Of a stretch of DNA of 64,000 nt, positions 17,519 to 28,516 are shown piece by piece. Each line of letters starts with the position of its first letter. The stretch's first letter is position 1. The translations under genes were made by a program, and so were the position numbers. This stretch comes from an uncultured Candidatus Saccharibacteria bacterium. Lineage in GTDB: Bacteria > Patescibacteriota > Minisyncoccia > Phycocordibacterales > UBA9973. Location of the stretch: the NCBI GenBank assembly GCA_964596395.1, contig CAZQSY010000006.1:153-64152 (forward strand), in the 5' to 3' direction. Below the pieces are notes generated by a model. That model was not told the origin of the DNA, made no database searches, and saw only the letters and a list, made by a program, of their open reading frames with translations.

Positions 17519-19981
17519 ATGCCGAAAAAACAGAACGACACAGAAGACGTGAAGCCGCGCGCCGAAGGAATAATACCGGTAGATGTGGTGCGGGAAATGA
17601 AAGATTCATATCTCGCTTATTCCATGTCGGTCATTACTGCGCGAGCTCTGCCCGACGTCAGAGACGGTTTGAAGCCCGTGCATCGCAGAATTTTGTATGC
17701 CATGCATGAAATGGGGCTTGCTTCGACGGCCCGGTTCAGAAAATCGGCGGCGGTGGTCGGCGACGTTTTGGGTAAATACCACCCGCACGGCGACGTGGCC
17801 GTTTATGACTCAATGGTCGGCATGGCGCAGGAATTTTCTTTCCGCTACCCGCTCATTTTAGGGCAGGGCAACTTCGGCTCGATCGACGGCGACGGTGCGG
17901 CAGCTATGCGCTACACCGAAGCGAAAATGTCTAAAATTTCTTCCGAACTTTTGCGCGACCTTGAAAAAGAAACGGTTGACTTCCGTCCGAACTACGACCA
18001 AACCCGCAAAGAGCCGGCAGTGCTGCCGGCCGCCGTTCCCTCGCTTCTCTTAAACGGTACTTTGGGTATCGCGGTGGGTATGGCGACGAATATCCCTCCG
18101 CACAATTTGGGCGAGGTCTTAGACGCGGCTGGGTATCTCATACAAAACGAGGATGCCACTACCGAAGACCTCATGCAATTCGTCAAAGGGCCCGATTTCC
18201 CGACGGGCGGAGTTGCTTACGGCTACAAAGACATGTTGCACGCTTACGGTACCGGCCGGGGCGGGGTGGTTTGCCGCGGTGAAGCCGAAATCATAGACCA
18301 AAAGGGCGGAGGGAACCAAATCATCATCACTTCCATTCCTTACCGGGTGAACAAGTCAACGCTGATTATGTCGATTGCCGAGCTGGTGCAGGAGAAGAAA
18401 CTCGAAGGCGTGAAAGGCCTGCGTGACGAATCGACCAAAGACATCCGCATAGTAATCGATTTGAAAAACACGGCCGTTCCGGAAAAAGTTTTGAATTACA
18501 TTTACAAAAATACCCAGCTTGAATCAAATTTCAATTTCAACATTGTCGCGCTGGTTGACGGCGTGCCGCAAACGCTCTCGCTCAAATCCATCCTTTCGCT
18601 TTTCATACAGCACCGCAAAGAAGTGGTGCGAAGGAGGAGCGAGTATGATTTGCGCAAGGCAGAGGAACGCGAACATATTCTGCTCGGTTTGAAAAAGGCG
18701 CTGGATAAAATAGACCGGGTGATTTCCGTGATTCGCGGCTCCAAAGACGCTACGGTGGCTAAAGTGAATTTGATTAAAGAATTCAAGTTTACCGAGCTCC
18801 AGGCCGTTGCGATACTTGAGATGAAACTGCAAAAACTCGCCGGACTCGAGAGAAAGGCGGTGGAAGACGAGCTCTTAGAAAAACAGAAATTTATCAAAGA
18901 AATGAACGAGCTTCTGGCCAGCCCGAAAAAAATTCTGGGGGTTATTTCCAAAGAACTGAAAGAAATTCGCGACAAATATGCCGACCTACGCCGCACGAAA
19001 ATCATCAAAGGCGGCAGCAAGGAATTGAGCGACGAGGACCTGATACCAGACAAAGAAACGGTGCTGGTGTTTACCCAGGGTGGATACGTGAAGCGCACCG
19101 ACCCTTCCGAGTACCGTTCGCAAAAGCGCGGCGGGGTGGGCGTGGTTGACCTTGAGACCAAAGAAGAGGATTTCGTGACCATGCTCGTCTCGGGGTCCAC
19201 CCATTCGGACCTTCTTTTCTTCACGAATCTAGGCAAGGCGTATCAGATGAAAATGTACGACCTGCCCGAAGGACGCCGCGCGACTCGCGGAAAATCAATC
19301 ATGAATTTCCTCCAGCTTGGCGCCGAAGAAAAAGTTACGTCCATCTTGACGATGCCGAAAGAACTCAGGAAGTCCCCGATTTCGCTTATGCTCGTCACTA
19401 AGCAGGGTACCGCCAAGAAAATGTCCGGCGAGTCGTTCAAAGACGTGCGCAGGAGCGGCATTATTGCCATACGTTTGGATAAGGGAGACCAGCTTGTTTC
19501 CGCGCTTTTGGTTGAAAAAGGCGATGAGGTGATGGTGGCGACGGGCGGCGGCCAGGCAATCAGATTCAAAGAAGGGGATATCCGGGAAATGGGCCGTACG
19601 GCCGGAGGTGTCCGCGGCATGAAGCTCGGCAAAGGCGACGAGGTAATCAGTGTGGATGTGGTGAAGAAAGAAGGGAAGGAAGGCACATTTCTCACCATGA
19701 GCGCGAACGGCTTCGGCAAGAAGACCGCTCTCAAAGAATACAAAGTGCAGAAACGCGGCGGCTCTGGCATTAAAACCGCCAAAGTTACTCCAAAAACCGG
19801 CAAGCTTATTGTGGCCAAGGTTCTTTCGGGCGAAGAAGAAGAGCTGATTGCTATGTCTAAAAAAGGTCAGGTGATTCGCACCGCGCTCAAAGATATTTCC
19901 GTGCTTGGCCGGCAGACCCAGGGCGTTACCATCATGCGCCTCCGTCCAGGCGACAATATCGCTTCCCTTACGTGCTTTTAG
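17519..19981 (+). CDS. gyrA: DNA gyrase subunit A
   Basis: [29 protein letters not shown], catalytic Tyr region AAMRYTEA, C-terminal beta-pinwheel repeats. Confidence 0.95.
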
Positions 19982-24900: not shown

Positions 24901-25278
24901 ATGAAGAAAACTTTAATTGGTTTGTCCGGCTTGACTGCAGTTTTCCTGCCGATGGTTGCTTTCGCGCAAGGGGGATGCGGCGGAACCGGCAATGTTCCGG
25001 GAACTATTGAGGGAATGATTTGCAAAATCGGGGACATCTTGTCCATAATCATACCGATATTGATTGTTTTGGGCGTGCTTTACTTCGTCTGGGGTGTTGT
25101 GCAGTATGTTATATCCGATGACGAGGAAGCCAAGACCAAGGGCCGCGATAGAATGATTTACGGAATCATCGGTTTAGTGGTGATTGTTGCCATGTGGGGT
25201 TTGGTGCGGCTGGTGATTTCTACTTTTAGTTTAGACGCTGACAACACGCCTCTTCCGCCCCCAGGAGTGCAGTACTAA
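24901..25278 (+). CDS. VirB2/TrbC-like T4SS-pilin-like small membrane protein
   Basis: IIPILIVLGVLYFVWGVVQYVISDDEEAKTKGRDRMIYGIIGLVVIVAMWGLV. Confidence 0.55.
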   Translation: MKKTLIGLSGLTAVFLPMVAFAQGGCGGTGNVPGTIEGMICKIGDILSIIIPILIVLGVLYFVWGVVQYVISDDEEAKTKGRDRMIYGIIGLVVIVAMWGLVRLVISTFSLDADNTPLPPPGVQY

Positions 25279-25288
25279 ACCACCTCTC

Positions 25289-25579
25289 ATGCTCGGTTTA
25301 TTCTTTCCAAACACAGCTTACGCCAGTGTTGATACGTTCGTCGCGAACATCAACAGGATGATAATTAATCCGTTGATAAAGTTGCTCTTTGCGCTGGCGA
25401 TTGCGTATTTTCTGTGGGGGGTGTACAAGTATTTTGCCAACCCCGAAAGCGAAGAAGACAGGACACAAGGCAGACAGCACATGCTCTGGGGCATTATTGG
25501 TATCGTGGTAATGATGGGGGTATTCACGATTATCAACCTTATTACTTCGACCTTCGGTTTGCCCGCGCAAAATCCGTAG
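25289..25579 (+). CDS. VirB2/TrbC-like T4SS-pilin-like small membrane protein
   Basis: IKLLFALAIAYFLWGVYKYFANPESEEDRTQGRQHMLWGIIGIVVMMGVFTII. Confidence 0.55.
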   Translation: MLGLFFPNTAYASVDTFVANINRMIINPLIKLLFALAIAYFLWGVYKYFANPESEEDRTQGRQHMLWGIIGIVVMMGVFTIINLITSTFGLPAQNP

Positions 25580-25784: not shown

Positions 25785-26306
25785 CTAATAAAACAGCTCG
25801 ACACCCGTCGCGGACGAATCCGCGGGGGTGACGAGAATCGTGCCGGGGCGCTGCTTTGGCCCCACTACATCGACTCCCGGCGTGTCGATGTAGCTTGTCC
25901 CGTCGGGCAAACCGATCCATGTCGGCCCGCCTTTCGGGAAGAACTTCACGGTTCGCCGTACCGTGAAGCGCAGGGTGTCCCCGAACCCTGCAAATTCGTA
26001 CAAAGTGAACCCGCCTGGGGGGACGATGGTTCCAGCGGGGGTTGTTACGGTAGCCGCTTGGGGAGCGGTTGCCGTGTCGCTCTGGGGGGATTTGGAGCTG
26101 GGGACGATTTTGCTCTTGGTTTCAGGTTCTGGTTTGAAGCATGTGTAAACACAGCTTCCAAACCAGAAAATCAGGCCTAGAGCAATCGCCCCCATCAGGA
26201 AGTTTTCCCAAGGGAATTTCTTACCCGACTTCCTGTAACTTCCCAATACCAGCAAGAGAATCATGCCGGCGATGAGAAGTATGAACGCTACACGGGCGTA
26301 CATCAT
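25785..26306 (-). CDS. membrane-anchored protein, possible NfeD-like partner of the SPFH protein
   Basis: One N-terminal TM helix, Pro/Thr/Ala linker, beta-rich C-domain; 4-nt overlap with the upstream SPFH gene. Confidence 0.4.
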   Translation of the reverse strand: MMYARVAFILLIAGMILLLVLGSYRKSGKKFPWENFLMGAIALGLIFWFGSCVYTCFKPEPETKSKIVPSSKSPQSDTATAPQAATVTTPAGTIVPPGGFTLYEFAGFGDTLRFTVRRTVKFFPKGGPTWIGLPDGTSYIDTPGVDVVGPKQRPGTILVTPADSSATGVELFY

Positions 26307-27349
26307 TTTTTATCATCTCCTTTCTCCGGTGGTTTTTGGCCACCGCCAACAGGAAGGACGGGTGGGGCACCTGCACCGTCCACCAGAGTTGTGAGCTTCG
26401 ACTCTGGTCCCGCCAGGCTTTCGGCGCGGAGGGCGTCGGCCACAGCCCTGGCCAGAACATCTCCAGATGCGCCAGATTTGGCCAGTTCGGCAACGGTTTC
26501 GCGAATGCGTGCGCCGCGGGCCTTCGCAAGGCGTTCCTGTGCTGCCGCCTGGCCCTCAGCCTCGGCCATCACTCCCTTTGCTTTCGCTTTTGCGACTGCC
26601 TCGGCCTGCATGGCTTGCTTAATTGTCTCGTCGCTCGGGTTGTATTGAGCAACAGAGACGGCAACAAGACGGGGGCCTACCTGCCCAATGAGTTCTGTAT
26701 TGAGGGGTCCAGAGGAGTCCTTGAGAGATTTTAGGATTCCACTTTCCCCTTTGTCGGCCTTGATAAATTCATCAAGGTCAAACCCCTTCAACACATCGTT
26801 CACCGAAGCGCGGATGATGGACCCTGCAAGTTCGAAGAACTTGCCTTTAAGTTGAAAAACCGGAAGATAGGGGTCCACTATCTCCATTTTTGCGACGAGC
26901 AGTAGGTCGACCGACTGCCGGTCCTTCAACTCCACCGCCCTGAGGACAAATGGTCTCGGAAACGCAAAACGGAGAGACGAGACCATCTCCTCTCCGCCTT
27001 CCGTTATCCAATCCTCCGGCCCTTTGCCAGCCGGATTCTCCTTCTCCTTGGTGATAAGGAAGGAGTGAATGGACAAAAATGGCGGGATCCCAATCCAATA
27101 TATTCCAATGGACGGGAAATCCAACCAGTGCCTCTCGGGTTGTGTAATCGAGGATTCGAATTGCCCGGCACTAGACAAGACGAAACCCCTGACATCATAG
27201 ATTATCCTCCAGGGGCTCTCGCCCCTGACGATAAACTTGATATCCCCGCCCTGGACTCGCGTCCAGAACAGATCGAGCCCAGATAGTGCATATGCGAAAA
27301 ACGGCAATATGACTATCACGAGCCCTAAATAAATCAATAGCTCTAACAT
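26303..27349 (-). CDS. SPFH/band-7 flotillin-like (YqiK-like) protein
   Basis: N-terminal TM helix; SPFH core (DLLLVAKMEIVDPYLPVFQLKG, SVNDVLKGFDLDEFIK) and C-terminal Ala/Glu-rich coiled coil (AEAVAKAKAKGVMAEAEGQAAAQERLAKARGA); start placed at MLELLIYLGL (track ORF extends to 27424). Confidence 0.75.
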   Translation of the reverse strand: MLELLIYLGLVIVILPFFAYALSGLDLFWTRVQGGDIKFIVRGESPWRIIYDVRGFVLSSAGQFESSITQPERHWLDFPSIGIYWIGIPPFLSIHSFLITKEKENPAGKGPEDWITEGGEEMVSSLRFAFPRPFVLRAVELKDRQSVDLLLVAKMEIVDPYLPVFQLKGKFFELAGSIIRASVNDVLKGFDLDEFIKADKGESGILKSLKDSSGPLNTELIGQVGPRLVAVSVAQYNPSDETIKQAMQAEAVAKAKAKGVMAEAEGQAAAQERLAKARGARIRETVAELAKSGASGDVLARAVADALRAESLAGPESKLTTLVDGAGAPPVLPVGGGQKPPEKGDDKK

Positions 27350-27523
27350 CTTGCCTCCTTGTTTTGTTTTTTTGACTTCAGTTTGTTGGCTCGAAAGATT
27401 AGGCACAATCTGCCAAATCAACAAACCAAGTCGTCATTGTCAAGGTACATTCTTACCCCACAGGCAAGGCCTATGGGGTGGCGGGACTCCCGCTCACCTA
27501 TATATTATAGCATTTACAAACCA

Positions 27524-27552
27524 AAAAGTCAAGTCAAATCTTGACTTTTTTC
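27524..27552. terminator. bidirectional intrinsic terminator between the regulator and the SPFH operon
   Basis: AAGTCAAG-tcaaat-CTTGACTT flanked by an A-run and a T-run. Confidence 0.55.
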
Positions 27553-27712
27553 TCTCAAATGTCTTTATTTTCCAACCTTTTTTAGAAACTGTCAGTTAAA
27601 CTCGTACGAACAGCAAAAAGTCCATCTTACGCGCTAACCGTAGTTTATCCGCAAAATATCCGCCAAAACCAATCTCATTAAAAACATCACCTTAAAACTC
27701 CACCCAATTTCC

Positions 27713-27730
27713 CTACAATATACTGTAGCA
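27713..27730. promoter_or_regulatory. operator-like palindrome CTACAATATACTGTAGCA (site 1)
   Basis: Identical 18-mer to site 2; related to the perfect palindrome at site 3. Confidence 0.5.
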
Positions 27731-27812
27731 AATACCCTGTAAGGCAGTTTTTAAAAAACAACCCACGCTAAAACATACCCCGAAAGAACTCCCCAAAAAA
27801 TAATCAAATTTA

Positions 27813-27830
27813 CTACAATATACTGTAGCA
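27813..27830. promoter_or_regulatory. operator-like palindrome CTACAATATACTGTAGCA (site 2)
   Basis: Identical to site 1, 100 bp away. Confidence 0.5.
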
Positions 27831-27911
27831 GATTATGGTGAAGCTTTTGCAGACGATAAAAGACGTAATATACAAAGATCAGAGAAATAAAATAAAAAAG
27901 AAAAAACTTTT

Positions 27912-28319
27912 TTATTTCTTTGAGCTTTTCTTCCAGTACTTTTTCCCGTATTTAGGCGGCATAAACCCCCACAACAGCAAAATATCCTCAACAATTTTCA
28001 GAATATCGGTCTTTTCTTTTTCGGAAACTTGAAGTATGGTGTCGTATTTTCCGATTTCCAAATTCAAAGACATCCTGGCAACGGTCGTAGGGCTGACCTT
28101 GAGCACGTCCGCGATTTTGTCTTGAGGCGTTTCGCTTTGAAGCATTAGGATAATGGCCAGACGCTTAGCCAGCATGATTTTTTCCGTTTTGGTAAAGAGC
28201 TCCTGCATTACCTCTTTGGCGAATTTTCTACTGTGAGCTTTTTCAAAAACAGCCAAAAATTTTTCCAGCAATTTTCCTAAAAGCTTCGGTTTTATTTTTC
28301 TTTTCGAAACGTGCGGCAT
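27912..28319 (-). CDS. TrpR/YerC-YecD-like small HTH regulator
   Basis: KRLAIILMLQSETPQDKIADVLKVSPTTVARMSLNL parallels the YerC segment QRLQVAKMIKQGYTYATIEQESGASTATISRVKRSL; start trimmed to MPHVSK (ATG at 28319). Confidence 0.55.
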   Translation of the reverse strand: MPHVSKRKIKPKLLGKLLEKFLAVFEKAHSRKFAKEVMQELFTKTEKIMLAKRLAIILMLQSETPQDKIADVLKVSPTTVARMSLNLEIGKYDTILQVSEKEKTDILKIVEDILLLWGFMPPKYGKKYWKKSSKK

Positions 28320-28363
28320 AGGGTTTGTTATTCTTGGAATTTTATCTCCCAGTATTATGTTAT

Positions 28364-28385
28364 TTGCTACAATATATTGTAGCAA
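28364..28385. promoter_or_regulatory. 22-bp perfect palindrome TTGCTACAATATATTGTAGCAA (site 3), 45 nt upstream of the regulator start
   Basis: Perfect dyad overlapping the likely promoter of the TrpR-like gene; same half-sites as sites 1 and 2. Confidence 0.6.
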
Positions 28386-28482
28386 ATCTAAGATTGGGTG
28401 CAAGGGGCTGGTGCAAGCAGGCGTAAACAAAACAATATGAATTATGCAAGTGATTTATGTTGCCGTTGATTAAAAAATAGAA

Positions 28483-28516
28483 ACAAAAAAACGCCCGGCT
28501 CTCGCCGGGCGTTTTG
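28483..28516 (-). terminator. intrinsic terminator; 34-bp direct repeat copy 2
   Basis: Identical 34-mer to 25603-25636; terminates the minus-strand gene 28538-29347. Confidence 0.7.

Follow-up and report, generated by a model that had tools for sequence, protein, structure and literature searches.

A gene for a Trp-repressor-family protein of a Paceibacteria-type CPR bacterium was found to be bracketed by three copies of one palindrome, one upstream of the gene (U) and two downstream of it (D1 and D2), in the 64 000-nucleotide stretch of DNA that was analysed here (the window). The three palindromes probably serve as binding sites for the product of the intervening gene, a member of the TrpR family, the whole forming a self-contained operator–gene–operator unit; this reading is based on the sequence of the window and its comparison with related loci. 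The features of the locus are given in Table 1.

Table 1. Features of the regulator locus and its flanks (window coordinates)
Feature	Position	Strand	Description
SPFH/Band_7 gene	26303–27349	−	Domain match; preceded by a strong Shine–Dalgarno sequence, AAGGAGG; listed as context
SPFH promoter	27504–27532	−	TTGACT-17-TATAAT with upstream TG, 11/12 matches; outside the operator system
Bidirectional terminator-like hairpin	27525–27553		Stem of 11 bp with an A-tract on one side and a T-tract on the other; separates D2 from the SPFH promoter
D2 operator copy (putative)	27705–27733		Core 27713–27730, exact copy of CTACAATATAYTGTAGCA (+); 100 bp beyond D1
D1 operator copy (putative)	27805–27833		Core 27813–27830, exact copy of CTACAATATAYTGTAGCA (+); counterpart of the family-wide downstream copy
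Weak AT-rich hairpin across the regulator stop codon	27874–27928	−	Possibly a leaky terminator; ΔG −12.3, z −1.4 (not significant)
Regulator gene	27912–28319	−	135 aa, TrpR family; extra C-terminal helix and basic tail
U operator (putative)	28362–28387		Perfect 26-bp palindrome ATTTGCTACAATATATTGTAGCAAAT (13 + 13 nt, 100% complementary); exact copy of CTACAATATAYTGTAGCA at 28367–28384 (both strands); position kept in relatives
Candidate extended −10 box TGCTACAAT	28376–28384	−	Promoter-distal half of U, directed toward the regulator; predicted from the sequence

Palindromic sites and the regulator

The three sites were recognized as exact copies of the 18-mer CTACAATATAYTGTAGCA, which gave no match in 100 dinucleotide-preserving shuffles, even with three mismatches permitted. 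The sequence that U, D1 and D2 have in common spans about 26–29 nt and, with the relatives added, its consensus is about AATTTRCTACARTATAYTGTAGYAAATT; D1 matches U at 88% over 26 nt. From its sequence, D2 is an extra copy that resembles the extra copies of some relatives. A tandem duplication of D1 and D2 was ruled out, as their likeness ends at about 29 nt.

Within the 64-kb window the pattern CTACA-N6-TGTAG occurs at the three sites only, and the only further match obtained when one mismatch was permitted, at 18223, was rejected as unrelated sequence. Perfect palindromes of the form N5-NTATAN-N5′ were likewise restricted to the three sites, compared with 0.36 expected. The initial annotation had reported three copies of the palindrome, including two downstream 18-mers 100 bp apart; all were recovered as exact matches at the places reported, with none expected by chance. 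A frequent, generic AT-rich palindrome, which it had named as grounds for rejecting the sites, is not what the window contains, and the search that it had proposed for further CTACA-N6-TGTAG sites, run here over the window, returned none. Its description of the upstream palindrome as perfect is correct, but not the length of 22 bp or the distance of 45 nt: the palindrome measures 26 bp and leaves 42 nt to the ATG at 28319, or 44 nt if the 22-bp core is taken.

The regulator matches Pfam family PF01371 over residues 19–92 with 40.8 bits (cut-off 27; E = 2.4e-10), and the same precomputed label is carried by nearly all of its homologues. Its true start is the ATG at 28319, which gives a protein beginning MPHVS..., with the N-terminus common to all homologues. 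In an AF2 monomer model (pLDDT 85.7) the helices span residues 11–30, 34–41, 44–61, 66–73, 77–88 and 93–101, with an extra helix at 105–116; all six TrpR helices (A–F, of which D and E form the helix-turn-helix) are present and the model has the all-helical TrpR fold. The top 35 Foldseek matches in the PDB are TrpR or TrpR-like, with probabilities of up to 1.0 and target TM-scores of 0.7–0.8. The nearest entries in a sequence search of the PDB are the YerC/HisR-like proteins 3KOR, 3FRW and 3G1C (E of about 1e-6 to 6e-5). In a profile alignment, residues Thr43, Arg53 and Arg82 fall on Thr44, Arg54 and Arg84 of the TrpR pocket; this correspondence is a hint that the co-repressor may be a small carboxylate. 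The twofold symmetry of the sites implies that the regulator is at least a dimer.

A full HMMER search returned 1504 clusters at 50% identity (E ≤ 1e-10), nearly all of 130–145 aa, and homologues were found in Paceibacteria, Nomurabacteria and related CPR lineages. Two short motifs were observed at the ends of the protein. The N-terminal MPH(V/I)S (residues 1–5; window 28305–28319) is invariant or nearly so, its codons varying at synonymous positions, and a C-terminal GG(I/L)MPP...YW(R/K)K motif (residues 117–130; window 27927–27971) lies outside the TrpR core. Elsewhere in the window, two adjacent paralogous genes for T4SS pilin-like proteins (PF18895, E = 3e-13 and 5e-9) were noted on the plus strand at 24901–25278 and 25289–25579, respectively.

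Conservation of the layout and co-variation of protein and putative operator

Relatives were sampled at 80 loci, with regulator identities of 28–61%, of which 76 were usable for flank comparison. A palindrome just before the start and a matching palindrome just past the stop were present in almost every one of the 80 loci fetched. The flanks were also compared with no palindrome assumed, over 175 nt on the start side and 245 nt on the stop side of the gene. In 63 of the 76 loci the two flanks have an identical stretch of 12 nt or more in common (median 18 nt; at least 20 nt in 34 of the 76), with 7/75 and 10/76 in the controls, and most of the remaining 13 loci have imperfect copies. The upstream dyad lies 12–48 nt before the start in most of the loci and the downstream dyad mostly 9–66 nt after the stop, and the distance between the two has a median of 472 bp (range 419–653 bp). 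This layout is kept from Paceibacteria to Roizmanbacteria. The window locus fits the family pattern, with the U dyad 55 nt upstream of the regulator ATG (farther from the start than in most relatives), the D1 dyad 91 nt past the stop, a U–D1 dyad distance of 554 bp and one extra copy.

Palindrome arms of at least 16 nt were found for D in 17/39 loci versus 7/39 for U, those of D often measuring 16–26 nt. Some relatives have several sites on each side: two upstream and two downstream in locus L063, four and four in L076, and, in L057, double sites with a spacing of 31 bp. As read from their sequences, such matched arrays on both sides suggest multi-site cooperativity. Two MAGs were observed to encode two regulator paralogues each (DATDWN01, loci L002 and L038; JAHFOB01, loci L006 and L054), and each paralogue has its own, differing flanking palindrome, e.g. 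GTACAATATATTGTAT versus ATACGATATATCGTAT, as if the specificities were kept orthogonal.

The pairing of protein and site was examined by comparison between lineages. U and D match at 18.6 of 20 positions inside one genome versus 10.3 of 20 across genomes, and distant lineages have unrelated palindromes, e.g. TAGCGATGCATCGCTA, CAATACTTTAAAGTATTG and AGTGGTTTGAACCACT. The half-sites vary symmetrically between lineages, and the variable half-site triplet sits 4–6 bp from the dyad. This triplet changes with the start of the recognition helix: SPAT is found with ATC (15/15), SPST with ACG (12/13), SPTT with ACA (9/11) and SSST with TCG (3/3). Within the S-x1-x2-T sequence, Thr, Ser and Ala at x2 accompany CA, CG and TC, respectively. 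The partial Mantel correlation between site and helix, given the rest of the protein, is 0.42 (permutation p = 0.0005). In a profile alignment the co-varying residues correspond to Ile79 and Ala80 of TrpR, beside Thr81 and Arg84, and the DNA contacts of TrpR include Ile79, Ala80, Thr81 and Arg84 (PMC9413887). The triplet also switches inside one protein clade (L022 and L027 versus their SPAT neighbours, with a hybrid site in L020), so the co-variation signal is not due to shared ancestry alone. By comparative inference the family thus has a palindromic operator of about 20 bp, recognized through the first residues of the recognition helix as in TrpR, and the regulator very probably binds the three palindromes of the window. 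The initial annotation had taken the palindrome to be the operator of the adjacent TrpR-like protein; the symmetric half-site change and the helix co-variation support that assignment.

Further sites were sought beyond the regulator locus. None was found in the window, which covers about 10% of the genome, nor did four relative loci of 20 kb contain one that reached 13/16; perfect distal sites were rare in about 600 kb of 8-kb relative loci (L003, L048, L064 and L080). No second regulator paralogue was found beside the extra sites. The fast drift of specificity argues for very few sites per genome. One candidate target outside the regulator's own unit, among only a few, is a divergent Y-family DNA polymerase gene (IMS domain, E = 1.5e-40) in L063, the start of which is abutted by the second upstream palindrome (1973–1988).

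A metagenome-wide scan for CTACARTATAYTGTAGCA gave 85 loci, with the regulator adjacent in four (L107, L125, L143 and L160), of which three show the core unaltered on either side of the gene. The other matches, considered as a wider regulon, were rejected: they span 25–67% GC, lie inside an ORF in some of those examined and look like chance or unrelated sequence, and the scan is uninformative on the regulon. Three Hainich groundwater contigs (L081 at 7340, L083 at 5761 and L092 at 2924) have the motif with the extended flanks AATTTGCTACAATATACTGTAGTAAATT and no regulator nearby; the motif lies within a 334-aa minus-strand ORF in two of the three.

The regulator repeatedly adjoins genes of the non-oxidative pentose-phosphate pathway (L167–L169, 10001–10414 and flanks; L013, L016, L026, L027 and L030). 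In the clade of the window the genes run tkt, regulator, rpe-rpiB (convergent), and in the TATC clade the regulator is followed by rpiB-rpe (tandem). Regulation of tkt, rpe or rpiB, which this synteny might suggest, was not adopted, as no site is present at their promoters in the convergent arrangement.

Roles of the upstream and downstream copies

The candidate −10 feature in U, TGNTACARt, also occurs in the clade relatives of the window. The gene-facing half of U reads TGnTATACT, TATAAT or TATGAT in two clades, TATC and TACG, where it lies 5–9 nt before the ATG, the spacing expected for a leaderless mRNA. The gene-facing half has a higher −10 score than the outward half (U_right versus U_left, p = 2e-4). 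In either arrangement a bound dimer would cover the candidate promoter, which makes self-repression through U well supported as a prediction. Autoregulation through the upstream copy, as proposed in the initial annotation, is thus upheld on comparative grounds by the conserved palindrome before the start, its co-variation between lineages and the directional extended −10 element.

The downstream copy shows no such orientation. Across the family its halves have no preferred promoter direction (p = 0.24) and their −10 score is below that of U_right (p = 0.012). Its position follows the stop of the regulator gene and not the start of the next gene. In 52 paired loci the next gene is convergent in 33 and co-directional in 19; next genes in relatives include gyrB, rpe-rpiB, dapF and DUF4406, and the downstream copy is present whichever of them follows. 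Since D is kept whatever the neighbour, lies near the regulator stop and is non-directional, it is best read as an auxiliary operator of the regulator's own predicted unit, not as an operator of the next gene.

Control of the SPFH operon through D1 and D2, combined with autorepression through U in a two-target regulon, had been the model of the initial annotation and is unlikely. The regulator and SPFH genes share a strand, with D1 and D2 inside the 487-bp spacer, and in tandem loci elsewhere D likewise precedes the next gene. The minus-strand reading of D1 and D2, TGCTACAGT, resembles an extended −10 element; it points at SPFH and could fire toward it, which counts against a self-contained unit. 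Against the two-target model stand the indifference of D to its neighbour, mostly a convergent gene, and the content of the relative loci: homologues of SPFH, of the 173-aa protein encoded after it and of the upstream TIG-domain protein were found in 0/80 loci within about 4 kb. SPFH moreover has its own promoter 180 bp past D2 (the D copies lie 180–300 bp upstream of it), and the terminator-like hairpin that separates the two has ΔG values of −12.9 and −11.7 and z-scores of −2.7 and −4.3 on the minus and plus strands, respectively. Neither an operator at the target promoter nor an association kept in relatives was found, and the tempting link to SPFH membrane-microdomain biology was removed as unsupported. 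It is correspondingly improbable that protein bound at D1 and D2 alters read-through into SPFH in this genome or that TGCTACAGT fires toward it. As separate observations, the SPFH promoter takes its −35 element, TTGACT, from the 3′ arm of the terminator-like hairpin, and the predicted 5′ leader of SPFH, which runs from that promoter to the Shine–Dalgarno sequence (27350–27505, minus strand), is unusually well folded, with a ΔG of −56.1 kcal mol−1 (z = −4.9; 0 of 200 shuffles fold as well). This leader matches no Rfam family and may represent a cis-regulatory RNA that is so far undescribed.

The downstream copies might alternatively act as a regulated promoter, either for an antisense RNA running into the regulator gene or for a small RNA or antisense transcript running downstream, and this we regard as quite unlikely. 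Every palindrome half holds a TAnnnT hexamer preceded by TG, D_right outscores U_left (p = 0.005) and a promoter scan shows TTAAAA-16-TACAAT on the plus strand at 27692–27719. The TA...T positions, however, belong to the palindrome and are therefore not independent evidence, and the absence of a direction preference and the scores below U_right given above speak against a promoter. A search of Rfam over 27300–28500 returned nothing at gathering thresholds or at E ≤ 1, the only small ORFs between the regulator and SPFH (27425–27911) are implausible TTG-initiated frames of 20–27 aa, and convergent loci leave only about 30 nt between D and the stop of the next gene. The unit as a whole has been considered as a mobile or once-mobile cassette, i.e. 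a helix-turn-helix gene with terminal repeats resembling a minimal insertion sequence. Identical repeats about 470 bp apart around one gene, a weak similarity of the regulator to HTH_23 (E = 0.002) and the MAGs with two copies bearing different repeats would fit such an origin, which is nonetheless very improbable: the protein has a plain TrpR fold and no catalytic domain, single copies are syntenic within clades (ThrRS-regulator-gyrB and tkt-regulator-rpe-rpiB) and no relatives (0) were found among 2.9 million viral contigs. Each repeat is palindromic in itself, with no terminal inverted-repeat pair, the flanks are unduplicated and nothing is shared outside about 28 bp; the locus shows neither the transposase domain, the variable location nor the target-site duplication of an insertion sequence or MITE.

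Least probable of all is that the palindromes are RNA hairpins (terminators or stability elements) or generic AT-rich repeats unrelated to the protein. The sites do fold as RNA (ΔG −8 to −12; z = −4.4 for U), and the long arms of many D palindromes would suit a hairpin. In many relatives, however, U overlaps the −10 element at leaderless spacing and would therefore be untranscribed, D is not followed by a T-tract, the motif is missing from the rest of the window, and co-variation with the recognition helix is not expected of an RNA element.

In the operator–gene–operator unit favoured here, a dimer would dock on the palindrome in the manner of TrpR, with Ser76-Pro77-Thr78-Thr79 (aligned to TrpR Gly78-Ile79-Ala80-Thr81) reading the ACA triplet 4–6 bp from the dyad. 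Binding at U, which overlaps the regulator's own candidate promoter, would repress transcription of the regulator. D1 and D2 would represent the local form of the second operator that nearly every family member keeps past the stop. As its most likely role, D is predicted to be occupied cooperatively with U by way of a loop that encloses the gene and measures about 470–650 bp, which would tighten the feedback. In a related option the protein at D would be a roadblock to transcription entering or leaving the gene and would insulate a weakly expressed regulator. D might also serve as a decoy. No helical phasing of the U–D spacing was detected (Rayleigh test not significant at 9.5–12 bp), which gives no support for a constrained loop.

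A tentative proposal is that each protein of the family, by binding on both sides of the gene that encodes it, loops or insulates that gene; across Patescibacteria (about 1500 clusters at 50% identity) a private palindrome would stand on either side of the gene and almost nowhere else. If it is true, it would amount to an undescribed form of tight, low-noise self-control in ultra-small cells, or else the protein–DNA complex, as a chromosomal landmark, would itself be the function. As a natural library, the family would further provide orthogonal repressor–operator pairs whose recognition code is readable.

Comparison with known systems

The regulator shares with Escherichia coli TrpR the Pfam family, the fold and a palindromic operator (here putative) that overlaps its own promoter, and the start of helix E, in TrpR as by prediction here, reads about 4–7 bp from the dyad. 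TrpR residues Ile79, Ala80, Thr81 and Arg84 align to Pro77, Thr78, Thr79 and Arg82 of the regulator. The two proteins differ in length (135 versus 108 aa, the regulator adding a helix and a basic tail), have about 15–19% identity and have different operator sequences. At its own promoter trpR has a single operator, and it is not known to have a copy behind the gene. The trp, aroH, aroL and mtr genes, which are also under TrpR control, are largely missing in CPR bacteria.

The looping repressors offer an analogy in layout. Looping and oligomerization have been demonstrated for λ CI (OL–OR), phage 186 CI (flanking sites), LacI (O1–O2), AraC and DeoR, and here as there the repressor gene is flanked or enclosed by identical sites at distances of a few hundred base pairs, which a single oligomer could bridge. 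The regulator belongs to an unrelated protein family, and its loop is a prediction, with no helical phasing seen in the spacing of its sites. The rep genes of P1- and F-type plasmids have Rep sites on both sides (incC and incA), which are direct-repeat iterons tied to the replication origin. As there, the gene is bracketed by the (here predicted) sites of its own product, sometimes in arrays (four and four in L076). Unlike these plasmid systems, the present locus is chromosomal, its sites are palindromic and its protein has the TrpR fold; the window shows no GC-skew switch that would mark a replication origin or terminus.

HisR (YerC) binds 20-bp palindromes, the consensus of which depends on the lineage, and about half of the genomes show its autoregulation; the protein is shorter than 100 aa, and its motif cacTTTA-N6-TAAAgtg is found at his operons and histidine transporters (PMC9413887). 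The regulator shares with HisR its nearest solved sequences, the palindromes and autoregulation (here predicted). It differs in its 135-aa length, in its CTACA-N6-TGTAG motif and in the confinement of its sites to the two flanks of its own gene. No his genes were found near the regulator in the window or in the relative loci examined, the neighbours being the TIG-domain and SPFH genes in the window and ThrRS, gyrB, tkt, rpe and rpiB elsewhere. The regulator thus shows neither the length, the TTTA-N6-TAAA motif nor the his-gene sites of the HisR/YerC subfamily. Of the TrpR/YerC-like label given in the initial annotation, the TrpR family is retained on the strength of PF01371 and the fold, and the HisR/YerC subfamily is dropped on length, motif and gene context. 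From its sequence the regulator is classed as a TrpR-family autorepressor that is distinct both from HisR/YerC and from TrpR proper.

In the searchable literature we found no description of a bracketing operator pair in a CPR-specific subfamily with co-evolving specificity, and no regulatory site described for CPR/Patescibacteria. These bacteria have very few transcription factors. The present analysis adds for CPR a predicted repressor–operator pair that is backed by co-variation in dozens of genomes. Its layout poses the question of why a repressor encloses its own gene only, and the code that links residue x2 to the triplet is directly testable and could be of use for building orthogonal repressors.
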